Of a stretch of 64,000 nt of DNA, positions 35,731 through 58,980 are shown one piece after another. The translations under genes were made by a program, and so were the position numbers. The notes beneath the pieces are model-generated. The model had not been told where the DNA came from. It did not search any database and was given only the letters and a program-made list of their open reading frames with translations. Source of the stretch: a virus; UHGV virus genome UHGV-0212524; one strand, written 5' to 3'. Every line of letters begins with the position of its first letter. Within the stretch, counting starts at the first letter, position 1.

Positions 35731-36294
35731 GTGGCCACACCATACGTACCTGATTTGAGTCTGACCTCAGCAGAGCTAGTGGTCGCTTTAATCAATCACG
35801 ATAATGGGTTACAGCTTACGCTAAACGAAATACGTATTAGCGGGACCGTAACAAACTCATCTCCAACAACTTCGCGTCGTAACACCATTACCGAAATCAG
35901 TAAAATCAGAAAACCAGATGGTGCGTCTGTTGTGGTTTATTACGACAGACTCGACGCAGATGAAGTATTAACGTATGAACCCATTCTGATTTCGTTAGAC
36001 GGTACTGAAGACAACGTTCGTGACATTCTTAGTGTTGTAAATGAATTCTGCGGAACGAACTTACAACCCGAGGATTTACGTGCTTCAGATATCACTTTAG
36101 GTAACGATCCCATTTCCGTTAACGTTGCCGACGATTCTCCTGCGTGGATGAACGCGTTTATGGTGACGTTGTTTGATACAACCGAACGGGCATTAGCAAA
36201 CGAAGAAGATGCAATCTTCTGTATTGGTGACAATGCCGTTCTTACATTCGAGGTTACAGATGGCGACAGCACTGAAGAAGACGAGACTCCATGA
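35731..36294 (+). CDS. paralog-family protein (187 aa), first gene of the tail-fibre module
   Basis: GTG start with GGAGGG RBS; shares PDLSLTS...YYxRL...CGxNLQPxDL with 45858..46370. Confidence 0.55.
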   Translation: MATPYVPDLSLTSAELVVALINHDNGLQLTLNEIRISGTVTNSSPTTSRRNTITEISKIRKPDGASVVVYYDRLDADEVLTYEPILISLDGTEDNVRDILSVVNEFCGTNLQPEDLRASDITLGNDPISVNVADDSPAWMNAFMVTLFDTTERALANEEDAIFCIGDNAVLTFEVTDGDSTEEDETP

Positions 36295-36721
36295 GCTCGA
36301 AAGCTACGCAGGCACACCGCAGGGCGGGGTACTGCTGTATAGCAAAGACAATAAAGAATATAAAATTGATGTTGATAAGTTAGCCCCGGTTGCGACAGTC
36401 ACCACGGTTAACGGTTCGAATAATGCCGCCACGTTGGATTTCAATACCAGCACTGACATTATTCTGGTGTTAAACGATCCCACTACTACGGTGACGTTCG
36501 CAGCCCTTACTAACGTTGCGGAAAATACCCGTTTCGAAGTAATGCTAACGTTTAAGCAGGGAACAGGGGCGAATAAAGTAACCTGGCCTGAAAACGTTAA
36601 GTGGCCTCACGGTGCAAAACCGGTTTTATCCTACACGGCAAATGCGGAAGACACTCTGTCGCTTTATACCCTTGACGGGGGTGCCACTTGGAAAGGTTCT
36701 CTTCTTGCAGCGGGTTACTAA
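36260..36721 (+). CDS. small protein with tail-fibre-like N-terminal domain
   Basis: MATALKKTRLHELESYAG..GVLLYSKDNKEYK resembles the N-terminus of the 1488-aa fibre (MAKAVKKIRLHDLRPYTG..GVLLFSKDEKDYK); internal ATG chosen. Confidence 0.5.
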   Translation: MATALKKTRLHELESYAGTPQGGVLLYSKDNKEYKIDVDKLAPVATVTTVNGSNNAATLDFNTSTDIILVLNDPTTTVTFAALTNVAENTRFEVMLTFKQGTGANKVTWPENVKWPHGAKPVLSYTANAEDTLSLYTLDGGATWKGSLLAAGY

Positions 36722-39700
36722 ATGAGAAAACATTTTCAGCGTCACGCGATTAGCTACGCGTTATCGTTAGCTTACGGTCACCAATCCTTCGTTACCCGGA
36801 ATACGGGAACGACTAACGACGCACATATCGATCATTACATTCAAAACGAAGAAGGTGTTCTGTCGAATAACCGTCATTTCATCGCTGATACCATGGCGGA
36901 ATACCAACCGAACGGTGACGCAACGACCGAGGGTCAGTCGTTACACATTATCGGTTATTGCCACATGTATATCGCAACAAAAGACGAAAGATGGTTAGAT
37001 GCTGCGAAACACGCCTGGGATGCGTACAACACGTACTTCTACGCCGGACAGCCTATTCCGACAACACCCCAGCGTCGGATTTGTAACTGGTTAGTAAACG
37101 GGAAAGAACCGGTATTAGCACACTATCCTATTCACCCTACGGAACCTACCAACGGCGGGTATAAATGTGTTCCTGTAAGGTTTACAAATGGCCAATGTAA
37201 GATACCGCACGGTGCACCTTTCTGGGGAGAGTATTTGGATATCTGTACGTTTGCATATCGTGGCCACCCTGCCTGGGCCGCGATTAACGCAGATGTACAG
37301 ATTATCAAGGAAGACAAAGAAGGGTCGATTAATTGGGAAGACGTTTTAACTCACGTTATTACTAATCCTGATAAGCCTTACGAAAGCACAGCTTGGGTCG
37401 ATTGGCCAACACTGCTAAATAATACTACAGGTTACACCCCGCTTTGGGGCGGCTCTGCAACAAAAGCTCCTAAACACGACGTTGACTGGATAATTGCCTG
37501 GACGGGTAACAAAATCCAGGATGGTGAAATTATTGAGACGGGATTAGCAGACGCTGATAAAGGTACCGTACAGTTAAAAGACACACAGTTAAACGGTGTC
37601 TATTTAATTAACTACGCGGTAAAACTTCCTGTCGAACACGGCGGTTACGAATTTAAACGTAATGAGCCGTGGCACAACCGTCCGGTCCACACACCGTTCT
37701 TAGGGTCGAAAAACCAATACGGTAACGCCGCTGATGCTGAACTGTGGTTTATCGACGCCTGTTATTTGCTGTGGCGAATCACAGGTGAAGAGAAATACAA
37801 ACAAGCATTAGACTGTGCTTTCTACACCGCACATGAGTACACGTATATTGATGCGACAGATAAATTCTTCCGTCGTTCTACCGCTGCGGATACACCGTTT
37901 ACTGACGGTATTTCGTACGATTTCGATTACCCAGATACCGTAAGTGCCACCTACGGCCGTGATGAGAATGGAGACATTACCATCCACGTGCCTGAAGCGG
38001 CGCAGCACTTTATGGAGCAAAAAGCGGTTAGGTTCAGGATTAACAAAGACTCTAAACTACGTGTCACGTACGGTGGAGTTTGTAAGAATGGCGATCCTGT
38101 CTACTGTAAAGTGATGGTGAACATTAACCCTGCGAAAGCTGATACCGAGGAGGTAAACTGGTACGGTTTAACCTTACCTCGGTCTACGGTAAATACCGTT
38201 AAACAGTACGATGTTGACTTAGGCCAACTTTCCCGTATTACCACCCCAGAAGGGGGAGACTACCTGATAGCTGAAGCCCGTGCGTGTTCGGACTACGGTG
38301 GTTGTACGTGGGAAGAACGTTTTGAGGATAGCATTTACGATGGTCGCGCGGGTACCGTGGTAGAAGCGGAATTTCCTGATGACAGTGCCGGGTTTATTAT
38401 CGGGTTTTGGTTAACCGCTGAAGAGAAGGTAAAACCCGTTTCTATTGTTTACCGTGCAGACGCAGATTTTAACTTGCGTTTAGTCGACAGTGATAACTGG
38501 CTTTGGTGGTGGATGTTACCCAACACAAACAACGAATGGCGTCAGGTAACGTTGAATCCGGATGAAGCCACACTTTCCGGTTATCAGCCAGACCACACAG
38601 ACGCTGACCCTAAACCTTCAGCACCGAATTTCGATAAGGTGGATCAGGTCACGATTCTTCCTGACTCCACAGTTGACCATGCACACTTTGCTTACTATTG
38701 TGTTAACGATGTCCCACCGGTCTTTAATAAAGACGATGGTTATATTTTAACCTTCCGTATTGCCTTACGCGGTGGTGCAGAGTTTGATGCAAAGGTGGGT
38801 GATTGTACGATTGTAGATTACCGATTGGATTCGTTAGCGTACTGTCCGGGTACGATACCGTTCACGAACAGCTACTTAGAAGGTTCAGAACAGTTAGGTG
38901 CTTGGCACGGGATGCCTTATCCAGGTTATCAGTATCCGTTTATGTACAGTATCCACAAAGACGACCGGTATAAGTTGTGGTTAGATAACCAGATTCAATT
39001 CCTGCACGATTCGCAGTTGGCTTACCAACAGCAAATTGGGGAATTAGGACCTGGTTGCGCAGCTTATATCTGGAACCGTTGGGACAACTACAGCTACGGA
39101 GAAGCGGATACCTGGACGACGTTCCATTGGGGTGATGACCATCCTTGGGCAGGGTATCAGCCTCGCGCGTTTCATGCTGCGTGTCGGTGTTGGTACGAAC
39201 TGAAACTGCGAGGTAAAGACGTTCCCGAGGCGTTAACAACCTATATTGACAACTGGGTGAATTGGCTAGGTGGGTTTGTGGATCGGTTTAACGGCCACAC
39301 TCCTAACGAGTTCCCTACAGCACCGGATAAAGCTGTTTGGGTGGAAAACGACTTCACCGCACATATGTGTGGGTTGTGGTTAGCAGGGTGTTGCTGGGCA
39401 TTACTCGCCGGTGCAACGAATCCGAACTACGAAAAAGTGGTTAATGCGGCAATTAAGGAGTTAGGTGAAGGGTTTACGATTACCTCAATTCCGAATAAGC
39501 CGATTAATGGAGCGTGGTCTCCAGCCGCTCGAGAGTCTTCTGATAACGGAATGGCTTATGGGTTCTACACTGGAGAAGTGCTACGTGCGTTAGGTCTCTA
39601 CGTTACTTATAAAACCTACGGACCCAACGCTAATATTTATCGTGACTTAGCGATTACTGACCACAGTCAAGCGGTCTTAGACGTTACGTTAACGATAGAA

Positions 39701-39727
39701 GATGTTCCATTAAAACCGGAGCAATAA
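36722..39727 (+). CDS. large tail-associated protein (1001 aa), possible tailspike/enzymatic fibre component
   Basis: long ORF inside the fibre module, Trp/Tyr-rich; function not recognisable from sequence. Confidence 0.55.
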   Translation: MRKHFQRHAISYALSLAYGHQSFVTRNTGTTNDAHIDHYIQNEEGVLSNNRHFIADTMAEYQPNGDATTEGQSLHIIGYCHMYIATKDERWLDAAKHAWDAYNTYFYAGQPIPTTPQRRICNWLVNGKEPVLAHYPIHPTEPTNGGYKCVPVRFTNGQCKIPHGAPFWGEYLDICTFAYRGHPAWAAINADVQIIKEDKEGSINWEDVLTHVITNPDKPYESTAWVDWPTLLNNTTGYTPLWGGSATKAPKHDVDWIIAWTGNKIQDGEIIETGLADADKGTVQLKDTQLNGVYLINYAVKLPVEHGGYEFKRNEPWHNRPVHTPFLGSKNQYGNAADAELWFIDACYLLWRITGEEKYKQALDCAFYTAHEYTYIDATDKFFRRSTAADTPFTDGISYDFDYPDTVSATYGRDENGDITIHVPEAAQHFMEQKAVRFRINKDSKLRVTYGGVCKNGDPVYCKVMVNINPAKADTEEVNWYGLTLPRSTVNTVKQYDVDLGQLSRITTPEGGDYLIAEARACSDYGGCTWEERFEDSIYDGRAGTVVEAEFPDDSAGFIIGFWLTAEEKVKPVSIVYRADADFNLRLVDSDNWLWWWMLPNTNNEWRQVTLNPDEATLSGYQPDHTDADPKPSAPNFDKVDQVTILPDSTVDHAHFAYYCVNDVPPVFNKDDGYILTFRIALRGGAEFDAKVGDCTIVDYRLDSLAYCPGTIPFTNSYLEGSEQLGAWHGMPYPGYQYPFMYSIHKDDRYKLWLDNQIQFLHDSQLAYQQQIGELGPGCAAYIWNRWDNYSYGEADTWTTFHWGDDHPWAGYQPRAFHAACRCWYELKLRGKDVPEALTTYIDNWVNWLGGFVDRFNGHTPNEFPTAPDKAVWVENDFTAHMCGLWLAGCCWALLAGATNPNYEKVVNAAIKELGEGFTITSIPNKPINGAWSPAARESSDNGMAYGFYTGEVLRALGLYVTYKTYGPNANIYRDLAITDHSQAVLDVTLTIEDVPLKPEQ

Positions 39728-39805: not shown

Positions 39806-42800
39806 ATGGCTAAAGCGGTAAAGAAAATTCGTTTACACGATTTACGTCCATACACCGGGGATATAGGTGAAGGTGTTTTACTTTTTTCCAAGGATGAGAA
39901 AGATTATAAGTTACCTGTCCGTGAGATCGTTGCAGATATTGACACCGTACGTAATGCGGTGTCTGATGCACAAACAGCAGCAACACAATCACAAGAAGCT
40001 GCAACTCAGGCTACACAAGCAAAGAATTTAGCAGAAACAGCAAAACAACAAACTGACACCGTTGCGGCTACAGTTGCTCAACAAGCGCAAACTGTAACCG
40101 AAAAAGCAACTGAAGTCGGTACAAAACACACTGAAGTGTTAGCCGCGAAAACGGCGGTAGATACCCAGGTTGTGTCCGTTAATGAGAAAGCGCAAGCGGT
40201 AGCGGCAAGCGAGGCCAACGTCACACAAGCGGTGACTACCGTTACGAAGAAAGCAGAAACTGTTGCCACACAAGCCGGTCAAGTCGAACAGTCGCTTACG
40301 GCAGTTAACGAAGCTGTCGCGTCGGTAGAGTCGTCAAAAGCCGCTGTAGAAGCTACAGCAACGCAAGTTACCACAGACAAAGAAACCGCAGAGAATGCGG
40401 CAACGCGTTCTGAGGCAGCGGCTAAGCGTGCAGAAGAAATCGCTGCAAAAGGTAACGTTGATGCAACAACGACCAGTAAAGGTATCGTTAGACTTAATAA
40501 TACCTTAAGCAGTGACTCTGTTACTGAAGCGGCTACGCCGTCAACGGTTAAGCAGTTAAATGAAGATTTGCAGTTAAAAGCAAACCGTCACAACCCAACT
40601 TTTACCGGTGTGGTAAAAGCACCAACACCTGCTTCGGATTCTAACGACACGAGCGTCTCAACGACCGCATGGGTACGGCAAGCGATTGCTGAATTAGTGG
40701 ACTCTTCACCCGAGACGTTAGATACGTTATCAGAAATTGCAGCTGCGTTAGGAAACGATCCTAACTTTGCGACAACGATGACGAACCAACTCGCGGGTAA
40801 ACAGCCGTTAAGTCCGTTACTGACAGCGATTGCCGCAGTCACCACCGCTGCAAACAAACTCCCTTACTTTACCGGTAGTAATCAGGTAGGGTTAGCGGAT
40901 TTCACCTCGACTGCGCGTGATTTGTTAGCGAAAGGGTCGACGGCAGATATCATTAACTTCCTGGGTTTGAAAACCACTGTTGATAAAGCTGCGGGTGCTA
41001 TGCAACGCAGTTCTAACGGTGCCGATATTCCAGATAAAGTCACCTTCGCGAAGAACATCGGGTTGTCAGCAGAGACGTATTTGAAGTTTAATGGGGAAAT
41101 GGCAGTAGATGCGGATATCAACACCTTCGGCCCAGTCGAAGCGTTTATGGGTGTCTGGTCTAAAGCCACGTCTACGAATGCAACAATTGCAAAGAACTTC
41201 CCGGAAGACGATGCAGTTGGTTACTTAGAGGTATTCAAAGCAGGTAACTACAGCGGAAGCCAACGTTTTACCATACGTAACGGTAACGTCTATACTCGTC
41301 GTTTAACAGGAACCTGGAACGGTACTAACGGCCCTTGGTCGCCCTGGAGAATGACAACTACCGCGAACCGTCCGCTCTCCACCACTATTGACCTTAACAC
41401 TTTAGGTGGTGTTGAACACATGGGTCAGTGGCGTAACTCCAGTTCTTCTCTTGCGACGTTCGATCGTCATTATCCCGAAGAAGGTGGTAATGCTCAAGGT
41501 GTATTAGAAGTAATGGAAGGTGGTCTCTACGGACGTATGCAACGTTACACCACTCGTCGTGGTACGATGTATGTCCGTGGGTTGACTGCGACTTGGGATG
41601 CGTCTAATCCACAGTGGGAAGATTGGATTCAAGTTGGGTATCAGGTAGACGGTGCCTACTATAAGGGTAGCTTTAATGACTTAACTAAACCTGGTCGTTT
41701 TAGTGTTACCGGTGAGGCTACTGACGGTCCGTTAACAGACTCTGCTGGCGCAACCTTGTTAGGTGTTTGCGAAGTTACCTTACGCTTAGACGGTTCAGGC
41801 GTTGAACAAAATTATACCACATACGGTACAGGCGCAACTACGAAAGGTCGCAAGTTCCAACGAATTCGTACAGGAAACGCCTGGAGCGAATGGCGAGAGA
41901 TTTTCACATCCTATTCACTCCCGTTGGCTTTAGGGATCGGTGGGGTTGCTGCCAAGGTCGATCCGTTAGACTGGCAAACCTTCGATTTCGTTCCTGGCCA
42001 GATGATAAGTACACCGTTGAATACCATGAAAAACATTCCTGCGGGAATGGATTGGGGTGTTATTGACGGTAACTTGGTCAGTATTCTCGTAGGGGCGTCA
42101 GAGGACACCGGTACTGGTCGGAGTATGTTGGTCTGGCGCGGTACAGTGTCTACTGCTAACTATCGCTTCTTTGCAGTACGTATCGCTGGCGAGAAGGGTA
42201 GCCGTACGATTACGCCACGACAGATGCCTGTGTTGAACGCAGCCCACACTTGGGCAGAGAAACAGACCTTTGCAAAAGGGTTAGCAGGTGAGTTAACCGG
42301 CAATGCTTCAACCGCCACTAAGCTCCAGACTGCGCGTAGAATTGGCGGGGTCGCTTTCGACGGCAGCGGCGACGTTAACCTCCCAGGTGTTAACCAACAA
42401 GGTAATCAAAACACCACAGGTAACGCCGCGACAGCCACTAAACTTCAAACCGCCAGAAATATTAACGGTGTGAAATTCGATGGCTCTGGAGACATCAATA
42501 TCAACACCTTGGTAGGTCGTGGACGGGTTACCGCTCTGACCGGGTCGAACAAGGGTACACCTGGTATCCAGATGTACGAAGTTTACAATAACGGTTATCC
42601 AACCGCCTATGGTAACTTGCTGCACTTAGGTGGTGCTAATGCGCTAGGCGAAGGTGAGTTGTTAATTGGTTGGTCGGGCACGAGTGGTGCACACGCACCC
42701 GTTTATATTCGTAGTCGACGCGATACGGCTGATGCGCCGTGGTCAGATTGGGCACAAGTTTATACTGCCCGTGACAGTATTCCTGGTGTAAATACCACCG

Positions 42801-44272
42801 GTAATCAGGATACTACTGGCAATGCCGCTACCGCGACGAAACTGAAAACCGCTCGCAGAATCGGCGGCGTTACCTTTGACGGTACTGGGGATATCAATTT
42901 ACCGGGGGTTAACCAGCAAGGCAACCAGAATACGACAGGTAATGCAGCGACCGCTACTAAGTTACAAACAGCACGTAAGATCGGCGGTGTTAACTTTGAC
43001 GGTTCGCAAGACATTAGTCTGCCCGGTGTAAACCAGACGGGTAATCAGTCGACTACCGGAAACGCAGCCACGGCAACAAAGTTGCAGACAGCGCGTACCA
43101 TTAACGGTATCGCATTTGACGGTACTAGAAATATATCGTTAGGGCCTGCCGATATAGGTTGTCCGGCTTCGCCCACTGGTTGGTTGGAGACTGGTAAAGA
43201 CGGCGGCGCAATAACTACAGCACAGCTAGTGACGTTATTGCAAAATAACGGCGCGTTTACCACAAAATCATGGGTTGCTCGCTGTGCATGGGCTTATGCT
43301 GCTAGTGCGTCCATACCGAACAGCGAGACGGGTTGTGGTGTTATTCCGTTAGCTGGGGCTGTTATAGAAGTGATTAGTAACAGCGCAAACAACTACACGA
43401 TCCGTATAACGACCCCCACAACGACGAGCGTCGGCGGCGCACTCACTAATGCGGAGTTTATCTACGTAAATAACGGTGATGCTTACTCACCAGGTTGGCG
43501 TCGCGCTTACAATACGAAAAACAAGCCAACTGCTGCGGATGTTGGGGCGTTGCCATTATCTGGCGGTCAATTGAATGGTGTGCTGACGCTGCAAAATGTG
43601 AGTCAGCCTCTCAAGACGCCGGGTGGCGGCATTCTGGCAAATGATGGAAATTTATACATCAATAAGTCAGGATTTGCAGGCTGGATTGATGCGCTGTTTT
43701 TGAAGAACAGCGGCGGTACTGTCACTGGCGATTTAACGGTTAACGGTAAACTGGTTACGAAGTATGCTGATTTCCGAATCGCTTACGGTAGCTGCGGTTT
43801 CATTTTACGTAATGATGGTGCCAATACCTATTTCTTAGTAACCGACTCCGGACAAGCCGCAACGGGTTCCTGGAACGGACTACGTCCGTTGTATTTTAAT
43901 AACTCTAACGGTCAAGTAACCTTTGGTCATAACATTTCTAGCAACGGTAACGGTTCGTTTAACGACGTACAGATTCGTTCTGACCGTCGCAACAAACGTA
44001 ATCTGGTGAAGCTGGATAAGGCTTTGGATCGGTTAGAAGCGCTTACCGGCTATCTGTACGAGGTTCAACATCCAGACGACGGTTGGAACACTTCGGTAGG
44101 TCTAATTGCTCAAGACGCATTAGAAGCGTTACCTGAACTTGTGTCTGAGGATGATGATGCCATTTCAGGCGAAAAACGTTTACGTCTAAACTACAATGGC
44201 GTTATTGCGCTGTTAGTAGAGGGTATGAAAGCGTTGCGTCAAGAGGTTAACGAAATTAAAGGAAGATCCTAA
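39806..44272 (+). CDS. long tail fibre protein (1488 aa) with phage tail-fibre repeats and C-terminal S74-type intramolecular chaperone domain
   Basis: Ala/Thr/Gln-rich N-terminal shaft; five or six copies of GNAATATKLQTARxIGGVxFDGSGDINL; C-terminal SDRRNKRNLVKLDKALDRLEALTGYLYE...NYNGVIALLVEGMKALRQEV typical of auto-cleaving chaperone domains (T5 pb1 / K1F endosialidase type). Confidence 0.85.
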   Translation: MAKAVKKIRLHDLRPYTGDIGEGVLLFSKDEKDYKLPVREIVADIDTVRNAVSDAQTAATQSQEAATQATQAKNLAETAKQQTDTVAATVAQQAQTVTEKATEVGTKHTEVLAAKTAVDTQVVSVNEKAQAVAASEANVTQAVTTVTKKAETVATQAGQVEQSLTAVNEAVASVESSKAAVEATATQVTTDKETAENAATRSEAAAKRAEEIAAKGNVDATTTSKGIVRLNNTLSSDSVTEAATPSTVKQLNEDLQLKANRHNPTFTGVVKAPTPASDSNDTSVSTTAWVRQAIAELVDSSPETLDTLSEIAAALGNDPNFATTMTNQLAGKQPLSPLLTAIAAVTTAANKLPYFTGSNQVGLADFTSTARDLLAKGSTADIINFLGLKTTVDKAAGAMQRSSNGADIPDKVTFAKNIGLSAETYLKFNGEMAVDADINTFGPVEAFMGVWSKATSTNATIAKNFPEDDAVGYLEVFKAGNYSGSQRFTIRNGNVYTRRLTGTWNGTNGPWSPWRMTTTANRPLSTTIDLNTLGGVEHMGQWRNSSSSLATFDRHYPEEGGNAQGVLEVMEGGLYGRMQRYTTRRGTMYVRGLTATWDASNPQWEDWIQVGYQVDGAYYKGSFNDLTKPGRFSVTGEATDGPLTDSAGATLLGVCEVTLRLDGSGVEQNYTTYGTGATTKGRKFQRIRTGNAWSEWREIFTSYSLPLALGIGGVAAKVDPLDWQTFDFVPGQMISTPLNTMKNIPAGMDWGVIDGNLVSILVGASEDTGTGRSMLVWRGTVSTANYRFFAVRIAGEKGSRTITPRQMPVLNAAHTWAEKQTFAKGLAGELTGNASTATKLQTARRIGGVAFDGSGDVNLPGVNQQGNQNTTGNAATATKLQTARNINGVKFDGSGDININTLVGRGRVTALTGSNKGTPGIQMYEVYNNGYPTAYGNLLHLGGANALGEGELLIGWSGTSGAHAPVYIRSRRDTADAPWSDWAQVYTARDSIPGVNTTGNQDTTGNAATATKLKTARRIGGVTFDGTGDINLPGVNQQGNQNTTGNAATATKLQTARKIGGVNFDGSQDISLPGVNQTGNQSTTGNAATATKLQTARTINGIAFDGTRNISLGPADIGCPASPTGWLETGKDGGAITTAQLVTLLQNNGAFTTKSWVARCAWAYAASASIPNSETGCGVIPLAGAVIEVISNSANNYTIRITTPTTTSVGGALTNAEFIYVNNGDAYSPGWRRAYNTKNKPTAADVGALPLSGGQLNGVLTLQNVSQPLKTPGGGILANDGNLYINKSGFAGWIDALFLKNSGGTVTGDLTVNGKLVTKYADFRIAYGSCGFILRNDGANTYFLVTDSGQAATGSWNGLRPLYFNNSNGQVTFGHNISSNGNGSFNDVQIRSDRRNKRNLVKLDKALDRLEALTGYLYEVQHPDDGWNTSVGLIAQDALEALPELVSEDDDAISGEKRLRLNYNGVIALLVEGMKALRQEVNEIKGRS
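42298..43140 (+). repeat. in-frame ~120-nt tandem repeats encoding the tail-fibre repeat units (two clusters)
   Basis: repeated DNA and peptide units inside the fibre gene; they also generate antisense ORFs on the minus strand. Confidence 0.8.
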
Positions 44273-45648: not shown

Positions 45649-45895
45649 AATCGGGGGGGGGGGTGAAATGTTTTTAGCCACCATTTTATGTCTCCCCAAG
45701 CATAGGAGGTAACCATACGTGGAACATTTCACGCCTGTTTGGGCGTTAACTTAAGTAAAAAACGATCACTCGAATCTGCTATAAAAAGCAATCGGGGGGT
45801 GGTGAAATGTTTATAGACAACTTTTTATGTCTCTCCAATCATAGGAGGTAACCATACGTGGAACAATTCACGCCTGATTTGTCGTTAACTTCACT
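45649..45895 (+). repeat. tandem duplication (~105 bp units, ~139 bp period) of the promoter/RBS/first codons of gene 45858
   Basis: copy 1 at ~45649-45752 and copy 2 at ~45789-45895 share AATCGGGGGG..GTGAAATGTTT..TTTTATGTCTC..CATAGGAGGTAACCATACGTGGAACA.TTCACGCCTG; copy 1 retains a GTG-initiated 11-codon remnant ORF (45719..45754). Confidence 0.7.
45653..45663 (+). repeat. G11 homopolymeric tract
   Basis: eleven consecutive G in copy 1 of the duplicated upstream region; copy 2 has GGGGGGTGG. Confidence 0.8.
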
Positions 45896-46370
45896 TAACA
45901 TGGTTATTTCACTGGTTAACCATGACCTCCAGCTCGACCTGCAAGAGAACGAGGTTGAAGTCAGCGACGTAAAGACCAGTAACGAAATGGATCGTGACAC
46001 CACTGCTGTTGTAAAGATAAAACGTCCTGGTAACAGAACGTTACAAATCTATTACAACCGTTTAACCGCAGAGCGGTGGTTAAACCAGCAACCTATTCTG
46101 GTAAAGGTTTCCGGTAATGGTTTTACCGCACACGATCTAATCGACGGAATTAACGCGGCTTGCGGTTGTAATTTACAACCCGACGATCTTACCGACGAAT
46201 CATTTACCGTAGGGAAAGACGCTGTAACGTTACAGGTTTCACCCAACTCGTTAGGTTATAAAGGCCAATTCTCCGTTCTGGTTTTCGGTAACGACGAAGA
46301 AGCCGCTGTAGTAAAAGACAACGATTTAATCGTTACCGCAGATAATCGCGTCTTAACCTTTGGTGGTTAA
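45858..46370 (+). CDS. paralog-family protein (170 aa), paralog of 35731..36294
   Basis: GTG start with TAGGAGGT RBS; conserved PDLSLTS, YYNRL and CGCNLQPDDL motifs. Confidence 0.55.
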   Translation: MEQFTPDLSLTSLNMVISLVNHDLQLDLQENEVEVSDVKTSNEMDRDTTAVVKIKRPGNRTLQIYYNRLTAERWLNQQPILVKVSGNGFTAHDLIDGINAACGCNLQPDDLTDESFTVGKDAVTLQVSPNSLGYKGQFSVLVFGNDEEAAVVKDNDLIVTADNRVLTFGG

Positions 46371-52000: not shown

Positions 52001-53167
52001 ATGTTTAATATTGAGATTACACCGCTCGTTAAAACTGAAATCCGTCCGGTTCCTGAAGCACAGTTACTCGATCAACTTTATCGTATATTCCTGGATAAAG
52101 GTGTGCATTTCCGTGTAGAACAAGTCAACGATGAAAGCATCGTGTTCTACTGGACTCACAGCAACGATTACCTTTGCGACACTATCGCGGTGGAAATCGG
52201 TGAGTTGCTCAACCCGGTAGAAACAACCGAGACAGAGCAACCGAAAGTCGAAGAGCAGCAGAAAGACGAACCGCACGTCCTCTGGTACGAAGGCGAAAAG
52301 ATTAAGGATATTAAAGAGGCGTTAGAGACCTTCTATCCCGATGATTTAGGCATTTACTGGGATAACAGCAAACTCGTCGTTCGATTGAAGAATGACGATC
52401 GTAACCTCATGGAAGAAGTACGTTCTGTCGCTGAGCTGATCGATAACGACACCGTTCGACTTATTTCGTTTCAAGGTATCGGAAAAGGTGAAGCGGACGA
52501 ATTCATGCGTATAGTTGTTCACGAACACAAGGAGAAAATTCGCCAGTCTAATTATGCTGGCGATACTCTAACTGTGCTTGTTGATAATGACCCTGTTGTT
52601 ATTAATCAACTGAACATCTGTATGCGTAAGTTAACAAAGAAAATTTTTCTTAACCAACTCGAAGAAGGGGAGCAACCGCGTGAAGAGTCCGATGTGTTGA
52701 AAGCCTTTACATACACTGGTCCAGATGCCGAAGCGATTAATGACACTTTGACAGCATTCTATTCTACCAAGGTAGAGACCAAACTCGAGGGCGAAAAACT
52801 CACCTTTAAATGGAAATGGTGGAACATTGCTTTTGAAGAAGAAATTCATAGTCTCATTAATGAGATTGTTGACAACCGTCTACGTCTTCTAACAATCACT
52901 ACTATTGGGAAAGAAGATGCCGATACGTTTATGCGTGATATCACTCGTTGGTTTCCTGAGAAAGTCCGTCAGTGGACTTACAAAAACGATACACTTACCA
53001 TTCTACTCAACTATGAACCCGGTATTATTGGAAAGTTAAAAACTCATCTGCGTGACTTGTGGTCAGTTCGTTTTCTTAATAATAACGAGCACTTACTCGA
53101 CGCGTACTTTAGAGAAATATCTTCTGGCGTAGGTTGCAACTGCCCTAACTGTCAGAAGCATCGCTAA
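52001..53167 (+). CDS. hypothetical protein with internal repeated modules and C-terminal CxC..CxxC motif (388 aa)
   Basis: modules RLISFQGIGKGEADEFMRIVVHEHKEKIRQ and RLLTITTIGKEDADTFMRDITRWFPEKVRQ; C-terminal GVGCNCPNCQKH. Confidence 0.55.
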   Translation: MFNIEITPLVKTEIRPVPEAQLLDQLYRIFLDKGVHFRVEQVNDESIVFYWTHSNDYLCDTIAVEIGELLNPVETTETEQPKVEEQQKDEPHVLWYEGEKIKDIKEALETFYPDDLGIYWDNSKLVVRLKNDDRNLMEEVRSVAELIDNDTVRLISFQGIGKGEADEFMRIVVHEHKEKIRQSNYAGDTLTVLVDNDPVVINQLNICMRKLTKKIFLNQLEEGEQPREESDVLKAFTYTGPDAEAINDTLTAFYSTKVETKLEGEKLTFKWKWWNIAFEEEIHSLINEIVDNRLRLLTITTIGKEDADTFMRDITRWFPEKVRQWTYKNDTLTILLNYEPGIIGKLKTHLRDLWSVRFLNNNEHLLDAYFREISSGVGCNCPNCQKHR

Positions 53168-53184
53168 TTAACTAAAATCGTCCA

Positions 53185-53218
53185 AGGGGTGGTAAACCAC
53201 CCCTCTATTATTGTATTT
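53185..53218 (+). terminator. rho-independent terminator
   Basis: AGGGGTGG-TAAA-CCACCCCT hairpin followed by a T-rich tract. Confidence 0.7.
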
Positions 53219-53236
53219 ACCTAAAGGAGCATTAAA

Positions 53237-53668
53237 ATGTTTTTCGTATTAAAAGATGATATCCGTAACTACATTCGCAACAACCCGATTGCCCTGGGCG
53301 TTTTAGCAGGTTTCTGTCGTCCAAATACTGATTTCGATTTAGTTAAGTTAGAAGAATATCAGGAAATTGTGAATACTAACTACATGCACATCTGTAGCTG
53401 GGGTAAACGTCCTCGTGAAGAGTATCCCGCAGGTGAATTAGGCGACTCTATGCATCGTGACCAGAATCTGATGCACGAATTCGTTGAATACACACTGGAA
53501 AATCTTAACTATCCGCTTTTAGTCGACACTGTACCAGAAATGGTTGACGAGTGGTTAAGTCGTGTTTACAACGACCCTACTGCCAGCACTCTACTGAGTC
53601 AGATGTCGCAAACTTCTCGTGATATCGACACCCGGACCCTGATGTACCTAGCACACAACGTTCGCTAA
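53237..53668 (+). CDS. hypothetical protein (143 aa), paralog of 51548..51979
   Basis: shared N-terminal motif and length. Confidence 0.5.
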   Translation: MFFVLKDDIRNYIRNNPIALGVLAGFCRPNTDFDLVKLEEYQEIVNTNYMHICSWGKRPREEYPAGELGDSMHRDQNLMHEFVEYTLENLNYPLLVDTVPEMVDEWLSRVYNDPTASTLLSQMSQTSRDIDTRTLMYLAHNVR

Positions 53669-53674
53669 CCTCTC

Positions 53675-53735
53675 TCCGCTATAGGCTTCGGTCTATAGCG
53701 GAATTAATTTTCTTTCCCTTTTCTTTTTTGTTATT
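53675..53735 (+). terminator. rho-independent terminator
   Basis: CCGCTATAG-GCTTCGGT-CTATAGCGG hairpin plus extended T-rich tract. Confidence 0.75.
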
Positions 53736-53834
53736 TTGACGCTACTTTACTTACACCCTACCCGACTATTCCTATGCTGGCTGAGGGATGTAAAACGACC
53801 TCTTAAACCTTTTTACTTACTGTGAGTTAACGCG

Positions 53835-54683
53835 ATGTCTCTTACGTCAAAACAGAAACTGCTAAAACTCATCAACACTGAAAACAATATTAGTCCACCG
53901 TTGACTTTCAGTGATGTTGATATCGGAGAACCTACCGGTACTGGGGTTGATACCCAGGTGGTTCTGACCTCTAAACTCAAAGGCGATGAGTCTACTACTT
54001 TAACAGTGACTTACCACCGTCGTAATTTACCTGACTACTTAACCGGTGAGTTGGTATTCGGTAACGACAGTGTGGTAACCGCATCAGATTTGCTTAATGC
54101 GATCAACGCAAAATACAGCCTAAATATTTTACCCTCGGATATCGTTGACGCAAAAGTTGAAGGCGAAACCCATCAGCTTACCGCTAACGAGAAATCTTAC
54201 GAGTGGTGCGGTGTAGTAACGCTTACGCTGCATGATCCTATTGACCTGACTGAACTTTTACCAGTTACTCAATTAGAGAATCTGGTAGAGTATCCGTCCA
54301 CTAAGAAAGGTAACGCTGCGGTTTATTCACACCCGATTGATTTCACCGCAGAAAAAGATTACCTTGACCCGATTACTATCAACGACACCGTAGACTTGGT
54401 AGAGTTAGCCTCTAAACTGGATGGCGTCGTTGATGAGAAATGGGTAAGTGTACCTAAGAACGCGGCTAACAACCTGTACGGTGCTAAAGTTATTTACGAT
54501 GGTCCAACCGCAGGTTACGAAGGCGCAAATACGAAGTTCACTCGTGTGTTGGTGCTAACGCTCAGCCCGCTGTGTTCTAACCTGACCGGTAACCTGTTAA
54601 TTCACTTTAACGGTACCGATCGTCCGAAGTCGAAGATTGAATTAGCACAGACTAATCCGGTCTTACCGGGATTCTTAGATTAA
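53835..54683 (+). CDS. paralog-family protein (282 aa), probable virion protein
   Basis: TTLTVTYHRRNL and SDLLNAINAKYSLNILPSDI motifs shared with 54697, 35731, 45858. Confidence 0.55.
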   Translation: MSLTSKQKLLKLINTENNISPPLTFSDVDIGEPTGTGVDTQVVLTSKLKGDESTTLTVTYHRRNLPDYLTGELVFGNDSVVTASDLLNAINAKYSLNILPSDIVDAKVEGETHQLTANEKSYEWCGVVTLTLHDPIDLTELLPVTQLENLVEYPSTKKGNAAVYSHPIDFTAEKDYLDPITINDTVDLVELASKLDGVVDEKWVSVPKNAANNLYGAKVIYDGPTAGYEGANTKFTRVLVLTLSPLCSNLTGNLLIHFNGTDRPKSKIELAQTNPVLPGFLD

Positions 54684-54696
54684 GAGGATTACAGTA

Positions 54697-55176
54697 ATGA
54701 CCAATCAAGAAACTATCTTCGACCTTATTAAAAAGGCTAACCCGGACGCTGAGTTCGACACCACCAAAGTCACGCTGGGCGATCCGGTTGTGACCACCGG
54801 TACTTACAATACCGAAATCACAGTTGCGTCAATTAAGAATCTCGGTTACACTAACGAACAAACGTTCCAGTATAACCGCATTGACGCAGGTTTGTATTTC
54901 CTGAACGTATTACCGAAACTGTTGGTAGAATCTGCAACGACTACCGCTGACTTACTGCCCGTCATTAACGAGCAGTACAGCCTAACCCTTACAGAAGACG
55001 ACGTGTGGGTAGAACAGGTTGGTGAGTTACCGTTGGACGGTAGCGCAATCGAACACGGTATTTTCTTCCGTCCTGAGTGTCTGACTTGGGTCGGCGGTTT
55101 TACGGTGCGTGTTGCACGTAAACCGGCTGTTGAAACACCGCCAGCTAAGCCATCACGCGCTAAGAAGAAAAAATAA
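54697..55176 (+). CDS. paralog-family protein (159 aa) with basic C-terminal tail
   Basis: TFQYNRIDAG and ADLLPVINEQYSLTLTEDDV motifs; C-terminal SRAKKKK. Confidence 0.55.
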   Translation: MTNQETIFDLIKKANPDAEFDTTKVTLGDPVVTTGTYNTEITVASIKNLGYTNEQTFQYNRIDAGLYFLNVLPKLLVESATTTADLLPVINEQYSLTLTEDDVWVEQVGELPLDGSAIEHGIFFRPECLTWVGGFTVRVARKPAVETPPAKPSRAKKKK

Positions 55177-55179
55177 TTA

Positions 55180-55217
55180 CAGGGTGGGGGTAATCCCCAC
55201 CCTCTTTTCTTTTTTGT
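55180..55217 (+). terminator. rho-independent terminator
   Basis: AGGGTGGGG-GTAAT-CCCCACCCT hairpin plus T-tract. Confidence 0.8.
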
Positions 55218-55239
55218 GTAAAAGAGGAGTTAAACGAAA

Positions 55240-55830
55240 ATGGCTGAACGTTGGTCTAAAGAAGGTATCATTGAATCCAAAACCGATTTGGAAGGCGGGT
55301 ACGTCAACGACCCTGACGACTTAGGTGCAGAAACGAACCACGGTATCACGGTAACGACTGCACGTGAGTACGGTTACACAGGGAAGATGAAAGACCTTAC
55401 CCGTGCACAAGCATTCGATATCTACGATCGCGGTTGGTGGAAGAAGCTCAAACTTGATGAGATTTTCGCTATCTCACCGTTACTCGCGGACCGGATGTTT
55501 GATTTTGGTATTAACGCAGGTCGTGCCAACTGCGTGAAATCGCTACAGCGTATTCTCAACGTGTTGAACAACGAAGGTAAACTCTACGCGGACATCGATA
55601 CCGACGGCGGTATGGGGCCTAAAACGCTGGGCGCGTTGAACGCGTACCTGAAATATCGTAAAGATGAAGGGCTAAGCATTTTAATCTTTGCGTTAATCTC
55701 GCACCAAGTAACTTACTACACGGAAATCTCCGAAAAACGTAAGAGAAACGAGAAATACACCTACGGTTGGTACGGCCGCGTCTTCAGAGAAATGGCAGAT
55801 TATGCGGTAAAAGCGGGGTTAGTAAAATGA
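55240..55830 (+). CDS. endolysin, GH108-type muramidase with C-terminal peptidoglycan-binding domain
   Basis: N-terminal EGGYVNDPDDLGAETNHGIT matches the GH108 signature (EGGY..DP.D..G.T..GIT); C-terminal DTDGGMGPKTLGALNAYL resembles PG_binding_3; strong AAGAGGAG RBS. Confidence 0.7.
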   Translation: MAERWSKEGIIESKTDLEGGYVNDPDDLGAETNHGITVTTAREYGYTGKMKDLTRAQAFDIYDRGWWKKLKLDEIFAISPLLADRMFDFGINAGRANCVKSLQRILNVLNNEGKLYADIDTDGGMGPKTLGALNAYLKYRKDEGLSILIFALISHQVTYYTEISEKRKRNEKYTYGWYGRVFREMADYAVKAGLVK

Positions 55831-55931
55831 ACTGGTTTGCTAAACTCTTAGCGTTATTGTGGAAAGCGTTAACGTCTGGACGGAAACGTAAAGACGAAAA
55901 ACGTGGACAAGAGTTCTTCTGGTTTTTGTAA
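55827..55931 (+). CDS. small ORF (34 aa) overlapping the endolysin stop (ATGA); amphipathic/basic peptide, lysis-accessory candidate
   Basis: MNWFAKLLALLWKALTSGRKRKDEKRGQEFFWFL; not in the supplied ORF track because it is under 60 aa; speculative. Confidence 0.25.
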   Translation: MNWFAKLLALLWKALTSGRKRKDEKRGQEFFWFL

Positions 55932-55937
55932 GGAAAG

Positions 55938-56612
55938 GTGTGGGTAATGGAAAAGCTTCAATATAAACGTTTAGATAATAAGTGGTTTGTATTAACGGAG
56001 GATTACCATTATCCGTTTACGTTACGTGAGATTTATCACGACCACGTACACTTAGACCGTGCGGTTTATTTAACCGGTGTATTACCTGACACGCAACTGT
56101 GGTTAACCGCTCCGAAAGGGTTCGTTACCGATTTAGCGTCAATTCCTGAACACTTACAGGGAATTTTCCATCCTGACGGACCGTGGGCACCTGCGGCCTG
56201 CATTCACGACTTACTCTATCAAAAATGTAACACGGAGCGTAGCTATCCCATGACACCGGGTGGTAACGTTTCGCGTATTATCGATAAAGAGTTCTCTGAC
56301 TTAACATTCCTGCGTATTATGCAGTCGTTGGAAATCTCGCCGTATATCTGCCAAACATTTTATAAAGCCGTGGCGGGGTTCGGTTGGGATGCTTACGTAG
56401 ACCCTAACGCGAAGCCGTCTTATACCACTAACGATTACCGTACGTTAGATTACAATCGAAACTATTTGTTCGTTCGTGAGTTTAAGGAGCCTGCTATTCC
56501 TGACCACGAACGTGTTGATATCACCACAGGTTGTCCCGTTAATGTCAAATACTTGAACATCAAACGGGCTTTTCTGTCTGGGAGGGAAGATGTTTCATCC
56601 AAATCCGAGTAA
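55938..56612 (+). CDS. DUF1353-like phage protein candidate (224 aa)
   Basis: GFVTDLASIPEHL and AACIHDLLYQ resemble the TD.AS.P / HD.LY motifs I associate with DUF1353; from memory only. Confidence 0.35.
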   Translation: MWVMEKLQYKRLDNKWFVLTEDYHYPFTLREIYHDHVHLDRAVYLTGVLPDTQLWLTAPKGFVTDLASIPEHLQGIFHPDGPWAPAACIHDLLYQKCNTERSYPMTPGGNVSRIIDKEFSDLTFLRIMQSLEISPYICQTFYKAVAGFGWDAYVDPNAKPSYTTNDYRTLDYNRNYLFVREFKEPAIPDHERVDITTGCPVNVKYLNIKRAFLSGREDVSSKSE

Positions 56613-57105
56613 CTTTAAACTCAAAGAGTTAGTACCACAATCGTACATCGCCAAATACGGTGATTCTGCAATTCGGTTTATGAACCCGTTGTTAATGATT
56701 TCGCTACAACAGATTCGTAACCGTTTCGGCAGAATGGTGATTAACTCGTCTGCTGCGCAACAGCGTGGCCTAAGAACCTTAGACTTTTTCATCAACCAAG
56801 AAAAGCCTAAGGGTGGTAACTATAAACAACGTGCGTTACAACTCTACTCTGATTCAGGGAGTCAGCACAAGTTCGGTAATGCATTTGACGCAACACTGTT
56901 AGACTCAACGGTAAAACAAGTCCACGACTATATCGCCGCTAATCCTGACGAATTTCCGTTCATTCACTTTATCGAATGCGACATCAGTTGGTTACATATC
57001 GACGTTCGTAACCAACCGAATATCACGTTCTGGTCACCGAATCGCGGTACTGTGAAAGTCGTGAAACAAAGCCCTATCGATTGGAGCGCCTTAGTTAAAA
57101 TCTAA
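56590..57105 (+). CDS. peptidase M15-like (hedgehog/DD-peptidase fold) zinc peptidase, likely second cell-wall hydrolase
   Basis: SQHKFGNAFDAT fits the HxxGxAxD zinc-binding motif and WLHIDVR the distal His/Asp motif. Confidence 0.5.
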   Translation: MFHPNPSNFKLKELVPQSYIAKYGDSAIRFMNPLLMISLQQIRNRFGRMVINSSAAQQRGLRTLDFFINQEKPKGGNYKQRALQLYSDSGSQHKFGNAFDATLLDSTVKQVHDYIAANPDEFPFIHFIECDISWLHIDVRNQPNITFWSPNRGTVKVVKQSPIDWSALVKI

Positions 57106-57189
57106 GCGCATAATCCTTAACTTAGGGTGATTGTACATTATTTTGTATAAACTGTCTTAGAACGCATTCTAGAGCGTTTTACGGACAAA

Positions 57190-57230
57190 ATAAGCCTACC
57201 CTCCTGCTAAGCAGGAGGGTATTTATTATT
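57190..57230. terminator. bidirectional terminator between convergent genes
   Basis: ACCCTCCTGC-TAA-GCAGGAGGGT hairpin with A/T-rich flanks on both sides. Confidence 0.75.
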
Positions 57231-57705
57231 CTACCGGGTGCAACATAGTGCCGGTATCCGGAATGCTGCCTTCGTGACATCTGAAGAACGTTACACCTTT
57301 ACCTTCACCCGTTTTGTAGTTGACGGTAGAATACGCAAACGTTGGGGTTTTCGACAGTAACCCGTTTACACGGTAATAGCGCTCACCGGTAACAACGTTT
57401 AAGTTACCGTCCACCTTGCCTAACAGGTCTTTATAAAGTTGCGGAGATTCAATTTTACCTTCGTCCCATGTAGCGACCCAATTCGCCCCTGTATCCATGA
57501 CTAACACCGAAAGGGGCATCAGTTTTAGGCTAGACGGTACCGGTTTAAAATCGTCGAATTCTTGAGAAGCAGCTGTACAGGTGTAAATGACCATATCGTG
57601 TTGGTCAACAGGTACGGTGGAGAACTGACCTTCTGCGTTCGGCTGAATAGCACAACTTGCCAATGTCATTACAAAAGCAACGACCACGAGAATGCGTTTT
57701 AGCAT
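57226..57705 (-). CDS. lipoprotein (about 160 aa) on the opposite strand; superinfection-exclusion or lysis-associated candidate
   Basis: N-terminal MLKRILVVVAFVMTLASC with lipobox-like LASC; AAGGGTGAG RBS before the ATG at 57705; flanked by terminator and a divergent promoter region. Confidence 0.55.
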   Translation of the reverse strand: MLKRILVVVAFVMTLASCAIQPNAEGQFSTVPVDQHDMVIYTCTAASQEFDDFKPVPSSLKLMPLSVLVMDTGANWVATWDEGKIESPQLYKDLLGKVDGNLNVVTGERYYRVNGLLSKTPTFAYSTVNYKTGEGKGVTFFRCHEGSIPDTGTMLHPVE

Positions 57706-57843
57706 AATCTCACCCTTATTAAAATTAAGAAAAATTAATTTTTTCAGGTTAGCGCCTACTGCCAACCGTCATATCTATATTTTAGGAAATGTCTAAAATA
57801 ACATTCTTATGCAATCCACCCCTACCACTTACGAGGTAAAAAG

Positions 57844-58380
57844 ATGGCTAAAACCTTCAAACTGCAGTTCGTCGAAGCTGTAATTGCTAAAAACCCAGGA
57901 ACCGCTTCTAATCTGACGGTTGATGATGTCGATTTTGGTGCTGTCGAAGCGCACAGCGGTACCGGTGGTCGTAACACCAAAATTACGCTGACCGCCAAGG
58001 CAGAAAGCCAGAACTTCAAAGGCGAGAAAGAATTCCACTACATTCGTCTGGCTTCTCAAGACCTGATCGGTGCCAAAGCTTACGAAAAAGCCGGTAGCCT
58101 CGATCTGGAAAACTCTGCCATTGTAACCAAACTGAACGAAGAAATGGTTACTAAAGGTTATGTCGATGACTATTTCGCTGAAAGCGAACTGACCATTGAG
58201 AAAACTGACGGGGATAGTGGTGCTAAAGTTTACACTGTCAAAGTAAACGATGCACACATTAAATTCCTGGCTGGTACTATTGCCACCTTCACTTATTCCA
58301 ACCCAGCTCCTGAGAAGGTAGCGCTGAGCGGTCTGGAAGGTGAACTTGATGGCTTCACTGCACCGGGTGTCGGTGGCTAA
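57844..58380 (+). CDS. paralog-family protein (178 aa), probably abundant virion protein
   Basis: optimal-codon bias; NTKITLTAKAESQNFKGEKEFHYIRL and C-terminal ELDGFTA shared with 58450..58980. Confidence 0.6.
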   Translation: MAKTFKLQFVEAVIAKNPGTASNLTVDDVDFGAVEAHSGTGGRNTKITLTAKAESQNFKGEKEFHYIRLASQDLIGAKAYEKAGSLDLENSAIVTKLNEEMVTKGYVDDYFAESELTIEKTDGDSGAKVYTVKVNDAHIKFLAGTIATFTYSNPAPEKVALSGLEGELDGFTAPGVGG

Positions 58381-58388
58381 GTAAGTTA

Positions 58389-58420
58389 AATCGGGGGGGG
58401 TGACCTCCCCCGATATTTCT
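58389..58420 (+). terminator. terminator hairpin containing a G8 run
   Basis: ATCGGGGGGGG-TGACC-TCCCCCGAT hairpin. Confidence 0.6.
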
Positions 58421-58449
58421 CTAACTTGTTCTATTAAGGACCTAAGATA

Positions 58450-58980
58450 ATGGCCGCTACTAACCAGATGATGTTGGTCGCGCTTTATAATGCTGCTAAC
58501 GCTGAGCTACCGCATCAGATTACAGATAAAGAAGTGTCCTTTGGTCTCCCTACTGCGCTGGAAGGCGAAAGTAAGAATACCAAAGTTACCATGACCGCAC
58601 TACCGGGTTCTGAGAATTTCAAAGGCGAAATCGAACTGCATTACGATCGTCTGGAGCCGGGTGTTGTAGGACGGATTGAACTAACTGACGATCTGTCTCG
58701 TTGGGTTCAAGAAAATGAACTCCGCGCTTGGTTACAGCTATACATCAACAAAGTAAAACCTGACGACGCTATCGCGCCAGGTGACGTTGTGTACAGCACC
58801 GAAGACCAGAAAGACGAACATGAAAACGTCACTCTGCGTACCGTGACATGCACCGTTACTGAACAGAACCTCCGTTATAAACCGGGTGTAATGGCAACTT
58901 TCGTAATTACACCGAAGGTAGTCGATAATCGTATTGACCTGGCCACCACCGACGGTGAATTGGACGGTTTTACTGCTTAA
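58450..58980 (+). CDS. paralog-family protein (176 aa), paralog of 57844..58380
   Basis: NTKVTMTALPGSENFKGEIELHYDRL and C-terminal ELDGFTA. Confidence 0.6.
   Translation: MAATNQMMLVALYNAANAELPHQITDKEVSFGLPTALEGESKNTKVTMTALPGSENFKGEIELHYDRLEPGVVGRIELTDDLSRWVQENELRAWLQLYINKVKPDDAIAPGDVVYSTEDQKDEHENVTLRTVTCTVTEQNLRYKPGVMATFVITPKVVDNRIDLATTDGELDGFTA

Follow-up and report, generated by a model that had tools for sequence, protein, structure and literature searches.

The 64,000-nucleotide stretch of UHGV virus genome UHGV-0212524 analysed here (the window) encodes a set of small paralogous proteins, named below by the first nucleotide of each gene. Seven of them (15289, 35731, 45858, 53835, 54697, 57844 and 58450) almost certainly belong to the Pfam family DUF7941, which is also paralog family B of phage SPN3US, and an eighth (20045-20683) is a probable member by sequence comparison. 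An initial annotation of the window had proposed six members of a family without an obvious name. The six open reading frames (ORFs), all on the plus strand, are real and their homology is collinear by BLASTP, MAFFT and DUF7941 scores, but six was an undercount, and the proteins match Pfam DUF7941, PHROGs 1037, 2935 and 3589 ("virion structural protein") and 4862, SPN3US paralog family B and the DUF7941 proteins of phage Goslar. The window contributes further members of an already described family, not a novel family.

Membership was judged by the whole-protein gathering score of Pfam PF25613 (DUF7941), 27 bits. All seven proteins scored above it (53835, 174.2 bits; 54697, 99.1; 35731, 72; 45858, 61.7; the 15262 ORF that holds 15289, 52.5; 58450, 35.8; 57844, 31.5), and precomputed Pfam matches on a near-identical contig agreed. 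The match of 53835 spans profile positions 5-275 of 276. BLASTP of the family ORFs against all 225 window ORFs connected 35731 with 45858 (E 8e-34, 35% identity), each of these two with 53835 (E 1e-5 to 4e-4), 57844 with 58450 (E 3e-14, 29% identity), and 15262-15816 with both 45858 (E 2e-5) and 54697 (E 4e-4). The most divergent pair, 57844 and 58450, was aligned to the other members over the whole domain by hhalign (99.2%, E 3e-19, 155 columns). In the MAFFT alignment the T-x-V/I-T-L/V-T strand and the following (Y/H)Y-x-R, with its invariant R, were collinear as the initial annotation had described them, and the alignment check gave no sign of non-collinearity. A third motif had been ascribed to four members; its strict form, DLL..IN..YSL.L..(S/D)D, is present in 53835 and 54697, and 35731 and 45858 carry only a degenerate form, D(I/L)(L/I)..(V/I)N..CG.NLQP(E/D)D. 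The genes lie in a chimallivirus at the conserved positions of the family, namely the cassette of baseplate wedge, DUF7941 and gp139-like genes and the neighbourhood of the endolysin gene.

It is practically inconceivable that these motifs represent chance or compositional likeness among unrelated small phage proteins. The pairwise identities of 15-30% are low and some BLASTP pairs are not significant (58450 versus 35731, E 9.7), but every one of the seven proteins passes the Pfam threshold, hhalign joins the subfamilies, the fold matches lead to one and the same Protein Data Bank (PDB) chain, and orthologues and synteny are conserved in SPN3US, Goslar and phiKZ. On these four grounds chance similarity was excluded.

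A hidden Markov model built from the window proteins detected no further strong member among the window ORFs, and flagged 20021-20683 weakly (E 0.006). The 20045-20683 protein did not reach the Pfam DUF7941 threshold; aligned together with its homologues (n=8) against the family profile by hhalign, it gave 87%, E 4e-6 over 146 columns. A search of the protein library with this protein returned a single cluster, and its eight homologues were taken from annotated phage genomes. One of them, gp110 of Erwinia phage Kwan, is a 362-aa protein in which an LVGFQF motif is followed by the seeming start of a canonical DUF7941 module (…WDLLIGLVNFENGFTFDKNQF…), a layout that supports the tie between the gp91 type and the DUF7941 family. 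No DUF7941 module was detected by hmmsearch or Pfam in 13086-15281 or in the N-termini of 36722-39727 and 39806-44272, and none of the seven proteins matched Pfam models for tail fibre assembly or accessory proteins (Caudo_TAP, T4 gp38, gp57-like) at E <= 1.

The shared module is an N-terminal domain of about 140 aa, built from two units of one helix plus three strands in the AlphaFold2 (AF2) models of 53835 and 57844; it had been described as beta-rich, and the models make it alpha+beta. A profile alignment of its two halves gave 95.4% probability and E 2e-8 over 53 columns, and the domain is an internal duplication of a unit of about 65-70 aa. The two motifs of the initial annotation are equivalent parts of the two internal repeats. 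In the model of 53835, computed from a 74-sequence alignment, the predicted local distance difference test (pLDDT) score is >90 at residues 1-145, <50 at 151-179 and 79-92 at 180-262, and the end is disordered. This layout, with a disordered linker between the N-terminal and C-terminal domains, is that of a full-length member and is found in no other window protein; the others consist of the N-terminal domain and a short tail, as in Goslar gp23 or phiKZ gp126. Foldseek returned a single significant PDB match for the 53835 model, chain 0 of 9xqd (E 2e-6), namely phiKZ gp127 of the outer peripheral baseplate; the N-terminal domain has the fold of gp127, the only solved member. The model of 57844 has a pLDDT of 94 and a predicted template modelling score of 0.82, and most of its tail is also confident (about 91).

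In most members the domain runs on into a flexible linker or tail with a short peptide, ...D-L-x3-phi-x4-L-x-G-(F/L)-x-(Y)-P, whose variants are ELDGF in 57844 and 58450, ALDGF in 15289-15816 and LENLVEYP in 53835. The tails of 35731 and 45858 are distinct (D..IF..GDnaVLTF), and in 54697 no [LM][DN]G[FL] linker motif was found. A profile from the seven window proteins, run on a library of 1.84 billion proteins, retrieved 2122 clusters. Among the best 149 representatives of these, natural fusions of two modules (45/149) or three (16/149) were present, in which the modules are joined by a peptide of the L-x-G-F/L-x-Y-P type, the same that terminates most single-module proteins. The strict form L[DN]G[FLIY] occurred in 21% of post-domain segments versus 2.3% of background windows. 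A second class of tail, DDGSxFxLDDGSxLxL-like and similar to those of 35731 and 45858, terminates many multi-module proteins.

The major capsid protein (2711-4996) shares 78-80% identity with its counterparts in SPN3US, phiEaH2 and Asesino, and the gene order of the window parallels SPN3US gp73 to gp163 gene by gene. Because of this identity and synteny, the window is assigned to a chimallivirus of the SPN3US type, that is, an SPN3US/phiEaH2-like nucleus-forming jumbo phage, with a genome of about 225 kb. Megablast of the region against the phage genome collection returned small mosaic pieces and no close DNA relative. Proteins 96-98% identical to 53835 are encoded on contigs of 221-228 kb from Salmonella enterica assemblies and IMG/VR. 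Near-identical copies of the phage occur in assemblies of several S. enterica serovars, among them Dublin, Enteritidis and Kedougou; either a carrier state or contaminated isolate sequencing could account for them.

SPN3US paralog family B is reported to have about 20-21 members (gp83, possibly gp122, gp138-154, gp160 and gp237; Thomas 2016, Ali 2017), and mass spectrometry found the SPN3US orthologues in virions (PMC5694885). Our Pfam scan of SPN3US identified gp83, gp122, gp138, gp141, gp148 and gp160, and not gp161, as DUF7941 proteins; DUF7941 and family B are one family, a small result that bridges the two names. The text of Ali 2017 names gp161 as a family B protein, but gp161 is a DUF4376 protein and Table 1 of that study lists gp160; this table and the Pfam scan indicate that gp160 was meant. 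Orthologues occur in the same order in SPN3US and the window, with 15289 corresponding to gp83, 35731 to gp122, 53835 to gp138, 54697 approximately to gp141 and 57844 to gp160. The two differ in that the tandem array of 17 genes in SPN3US (gp138-gp154, 115393-133154, about 18 kb) is represented by two genes in the window, a reduction which explains most of the difference of about 15 kb in genome size, whereas the gp160 and gp122 types are single in SPN3US and each duplicated in the window. This pattern of copy number, with the array cut from 17 to two and the gp160 type duplicated in tandem, is a lineage variant, and the window shows the SPN3US set in a naturally minimal form.

The DUF7941 proteins were described as a chimallivirus family in a preprint on Goslar of April 2026 (bioRxiv 10.64898/2026.04.21.720040), which does not mention the SPN3US work. 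According to that study, a virion has about 580 copies of gp22 and about 2140 of gp23, gp22 assembles into filaments in vitro once purified, AlphaFold 3 predicts head-to-tail docking of each protomer's linker on the N-terminal domain of its neighbour, and a phiKZ gp126-gp127 dimer fits unexplained density in the peripheral baseplate. Goslar has 10 members in its whole genome (gp22, gp23, gp31, gp33, gp34, gp86, gp91, gp92, gp93 and gp161), compared with at least 7-8 in the 64 kb window. Goslar gp22 and 53835 share the domain-linker-domain layout (28% identity, E 2e-11), and gp23 is similar to 57844 over its full length, including the ...DGF tail (29%, E 9e-8). In both phages DUF7941 genes lie near the endolysin gene (gp22-gp23-gp24 in Goslar), the wedge and gp139-like genes and a P1-S-like fibre gene. 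Unlike in Goslar, the gp23 type is tandemly duplicated in the window, and the N-termini of 36722 and 39806 showed no fusion of the module to lectin, glycosidase or leucine-rich repeat domains; filament formation and copy number were measured in Goslar only.

phiKZ gp127 (PDB 9xqd; Nat Commun 2026, PMC13250141) was matched by the family profile with E 8e-8 and by 53835 alone with E 2.6e-5, including the C-terminal domain, at identities of 16-17%. The window resembles phiKZ in the position of a family gene beside the wedge and portal genes and in a domain-only protein, gp126 in phiKZ (147 aa) and 54697 here. phiKZ differs in having three members only, in a located chain two proteins long and in a wedge protein, gp128, that has no LxGF tail motif.

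A more distant likeness, confined to the repeat unit, was found in Mollicutes surface lipoproteins, where tandem repeats of about 70 aa match the DUF7941 half-domain. Such arrays occur in Entomoplasma freundtii and in a BspA/DUF285-type protein of Mycoplasma sp.; one array protein (P0076) matched Pfam DUF7941 in 8 stretches with a score of 171 bits, and another (P0046) gave 13 matches to the window-derived profile. These proteins differ from the phage members in being cellular, secreted or lipid-anchored, and long covalent arrays of single units, with neither the LxGF linker nor the C-terminal domain. DUF7941 has also been reported in Spaid-like proteins of Spiroplasma (PMC13375240). Because of these lipoprotein arrays and Spaid-like proteins, the claim that the module is exclusive to chimalliviruses is not strictly correct.

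Table 1. DUF7941 genes of the window and the genes discussed with them
Feature	Coordinates	Strand	Basis and remarks
Portal gene	10369..13086	-	PDB 9xpe PHIKZ129, E 2e-43; portal of Goslar is gp36; divergent from wedge cassette
Baseplate wedge protein, phiKZ gp128/SPN3US gp82 homologue	13086..15281	+	PDB 9xqs PHIKZ128, E 6e-82
Seventh DUF7941 member	15289..15816	+	SPN3US gp83 orthologue, 63% identity; tail ...LVTKLALDGFRPGELINV
phiKZ gp139/Goslar gp32 homologue	15809..16696	+	PDB 9xpg/9xqd PHIKZ139, E 3e-34
Candidate eighth member, SPN3US gp91 type, highly divergent	20045..20683	+	Tail motif TLDGLNY, linker-like
gp122-type member, 187 aa, GTG start	35731..36294	+	45% identity to SPN3US gp122; N-terminal domain and tail ...EEDAIFCIGDNAVLTFEV
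SPN3US gp123 homologue	36260..36721	+	47% identity, aligned from residue 18 of ORF 36209-36721
SPN3US gp124 "tail-associated protein" homologue	36722..39727	+	71% aa identity
Long tail fibre, 1488 aa	39806..44272	+	Pfam and tblastn; acquired
T4-type gp38 adhesin	44272-45054	+	Pfam GP38, 233.6 bits; about 80% DNA identity to RB49/JSE gp38
Protein with Gp38_N domain only	45115-45618	+	Pfam; separate gene beside gp38
Second gp122-type member, 170 aa, GTG start	45858..46370	+	Tail ...DNDLIVTADNRVLTFGG; after inserted fibre/gp38 cassette
Full-length DUF7941 protein, 282 aa	53835..54683	+	SPN3US gp138 orthologue (46%), Goslar gp22 type
N-terminal-domain-only member, 159 aa	54697..55176	+	37% identity to SPN3US gp141 N-terminal domain; basic tail PAVETPPAKPSRAKKKK
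Endolysin, GH108 and PG_binding_3	55240..55830	+	Pfam; between two DUF7941 gene pairs
gp160/Goslar gp23-type member, 178 aa	57844..58380	+	N-terminal domain and ...LEGELDGFTAPGVGG tail; 44% identity to gp160
Tandem second gp160-type copy, 176 aa	58450..58980	+	36% identity to gp160; tail ...TDGELDGFTA

The best-supported explanation for the family in the window phage is a head-to-tail filament rooted at the baseplate, a mechanism borrowed from the Goslar preprint; the explanation as a whole, this mechanism included, is held with moderate confidence. The linker peptide (LxG[F/L]) of one protomer would dock on the N-terminal domain of the next, and head-to-tail polymerisation would produce flexible filaments, borne on the virion and rooted at the peripheral baseplate, that may help to find the host (host sensing). 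The product of 15289-15816 would form the root, with the C-terminal LDGF peptide of the wedge protein as perhaps another; the highly expressed 57844, its tandem copy 58450 and 53835 would be the chain subunits; 54697, having the N-terminal domain only, as phiKZ gp126, would act as a cap; and 35731 and 45858 would be fibre connectors, each paired with a fibre protein that has a gp123-type N-terminus. We infer this division of labour among the members. The initial annotation had proposed an expanded family of virion or fibre-accessory proteins; the PHROG names, the SPN3US mass spectrometry and 9xqd bear out the virion part, and fibre accessory is just one of several likely roles.

The natural fusions of two or three modules provide independent, if indirect, sequence-level support for head-to-tail chaining; the enrichment of the strict motif behind the domain and that of [LM]xG[FL] in wedge tails also lend it indirect support. 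Incorporation into the virion at high copy number is expected by analogy with the orthologues SPN3US gp141 and gp160 and Goslar gp22 and gp23. Two members had been called strongly codon-biased, which applies to 57844 only, with an effective number of codons (Nc) of 36.3 and a codon adaptation index (CAI) of 0.60 by reference to the major capsid gene, values second in the window only to that gene; the bias of 58450 is moderate (Nc 46.1, CAI 0.44). The capsid-like bias of 57844 is consistent with a very abundant subunit, and 57844 is probably the major subunit.

Several observations weigh against the baseplate-rooted filament. The Goslar maps contain no DUF7941 density, and just phiKZ gp127, with the fitted gp126, has been located (bioRxiv 10.64898/2026.04.21.720040). 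The attachment to the baseplate is an analogy from gene neighbourhood and the phiKZ structure, and it is contradicted by SPN3US proteomics, in which the family was found in tailless particles and all 21 members were filed as head proteins (PMC5105663, PMC5694885, PMC10052503). SPN3US gp122, the type of 35731 and 45858, was undetected in wild-type virions (PMC5694885). That the LxGF peptide docks on the next N-terminal domain is likewise presumed by analogy, and Foldseek with the 57844 model gave no link to 9xqd. As to the wedge protein as a second root, the LxGF motif is absent from the C-termini of the wedge proteins phiKZ gp128 and Phobos gp79, and the enrichment test described below was devised once the motif had already been seen in the window.

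The main competing explanation is that the proteins belong to the head, either ejected from inside the capsid or forming decoration or collar filaments on the capsid or neck. It draws on the recovery of all family B members in purified tailless particles of two SPN3US mutants, on more than 300 copies of each of gp141 and gp160 per capsid (PMC5105663, PMC5694885, PMC10052503), and on the lack of DUF7941 density at the baseplate in the Goslar maps. We consider a head location unlikely, since the 9xqd model has phiKZ gp127 in the outer peripheral baseplate, one member is encoded between baseplate genes in the window, SPN3US, phiKZ and Goslar alike, relatives carry the module N-terminal to lectin, glycosidase and propeller domains of the receptor-binding type, and the members are not among the eight SPN3US head proteins that the prohead protease is reported to cleave. 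Self-assembling filaments could also co-purify with heads, which would reconcile the two sets of data. A narrower alternative concerns 35731 and 45858 only, which could be non-virion chaperones for the assembly or attachment of the adjacent fibres. Each gp122-type copy adjoins a set of fibre genes, the gp122-type tails are unlike the LxGF class, and gp122 was seen only in a particle preparation from an SPN3US mutant; but the N-terminal domain is the same as in the abundant virion members, there is no Pfam similarity to known tail fibre assembly families, the fibre has its own Peptidase_S74 intramolecular chaperone and gp38 adhesin, and Goslar gp91, likewise a small DUF7941 protein with a fibre gene as neighbour, was found in virions. 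A chaperone role is in our judgement quite unlikely.

As an extension of the baseplate-rooted filament, the family might be viewed as a polar, modular building kit of initiator, elongators, terminators and fibre adaptors, an idea put forward tentatively and with considerable doubt. The wedge protein would start a chain by presenting one to six C-terminal LxG(F/L) peptides, proteins with an N-terminal domain and a linker would elongate it, and domain-only proteins, or a domain fused to an effector, would terminate it. A gp122-type protein together with a gp123-type N-terminus of about 48 aa would form a plug-in adaptor for a foreign T4/P1/P2-like fibre with its gp38. This reading is not stated in the consulted portions of the phiKZ (PMC13250141) and Goslar (bioRxiv 10.64898/2026.04.21.720040) papers.

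The wedge protein of the window ends in KINDLDGFTLDQLPK, with an LDGF linker motif at 15246-15257, and SPN3US gp82, its counterpart, ends in DRDMDGFRLDQLPK. In seven wedge proteins, [LM]xG[FL] occurred 12 times in the last 90 residues (630 aa in total) versus 6 times in the other 4725 aa (Poisson 7e-11); the tails of the Goslar, Yaphecito and Special G proteins hold 3-6 copies about 20 residues apart. These sequences suggest that wedge tails may offer docking peptides for DUF7941 proteins, and the wedge protein (13086-15281) is proposed as an anchor or initiator for the family. The cassette of divergent portal gene, wedge gene, DUF7941 gene and gp139-like gene is kept in the window, SPN3US, phiKZ and Goslar. 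The same order is found in Phobos, Yaphecito and Special G, whose small downstream genes were left unscanned for DUF7941. Lying between the wedge and gp139-like genes, 15289..15816 is the positional equivalent of phiKZ gp127/gp126; in phiKZ, gp139 dimers form a band from the wedge protein gp128 to gp127 (PMC13250141). The ORF opens at TTG 15262, the alignment with gp83 begins at M10, and the true start is probably ATG 15289.

The members 35731 and 45858 bracket the fibre genes, as had been noted from the gene positions. The former is directly upstream of the gp123- and gp124-like fibre genes; ORF 36209-36721, encoding the gp123 homologue, probably starts at ATG 36260 and overlaps the end of 35731-36294 by 35 nt. 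The cassette 39806-45618 is inserted after the gp124 homologue, where SPN3US has nothing at the same position, and SPN3US likewise has no counterpart of 45858..46370 at its position. The 39806 fibre is a mosaic: its N-terminus is of the gp123 type, its shaft is P1/P2/Goslar gp90-like, and it has both a T4 Gp34_trimer domain and a Peptidase_S74 chaperone domain. The Gp38_N scores over 44272-45618 are 57 and 72 bits. The first 48 or so residues of the fibre (39806-39950) share 52% identity with the N-terminal segment of the gp123 homologue (36260-36410; 36209 residues 18-67), and this segment is probably a shared attachment module. The gp123-type N-terminus occurs once per genome in SPN3US-like phages. 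The window has two such N-termini and two gp122-type DUF7941 genes, compared with one and one in SPN3US, a 1:1 pattern which suggests, on the basis of two genomes, that the two may be paired. Related loci retrieved with a gp122-type alignment came from the same lineage and from SPN3US only, a narrow base for co-occurrence. There was no significant similarity between Goslar gp91 and 45858 or between the N-termini of Goslar gp90 and 39806, and the adaptor pairing is accordingly not conserved at the sequence level in Goslar.

Few virion components of nucleus-forming jumbo phages match the DUF7941 family in abundance and variability, with 3 identified members in phiKZ and 21 in SPN3US; two bodies of work, neither citing the other, disagree on where it is located and what it does. 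The present analysis adds features open to testing: the LxGF peptide as a proposed docking element, the motifs in wedge tails and the suggested pairing with fibre adaptors. These wedge-tail motifs and the pairing, like the internal duplication, the fusions and the Mollicutes repeats, are added observations offered as hypotheses. Engineering of jumbo-phage host range would benefit from knowing how foreign fibres attach.

Two members had also been described as flanking the endolysin gene. That description does not fit, since 53835 and 54697 are both upstream of it, and 57844 and 58450 are 2 kb downstream, past three other genes. A scan for sigma-70 promoters found 8 sites versus 9.4 expected, no more than chance would give. 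Terminator-like sites in 53000-59500 numbered 17 versus 6.4 +/- 2.5 expected. GC-rich hairpins with T runs were located at 53675-53702, 55181-55203, 57197-57221, 58390-58414 and 59018-59044, two of them bidirectional, and terminator-like hairpins delimit 53835-54697, 57844 and 58450 as separate units. Just past the DUF7941 genes, the opposite strand encodes a DUF4376 protein homologous to SPN3US gp161 (59049-59723, minus strand), and beyond it, also on the minus strand, a radical SAM protein (60228-61562).

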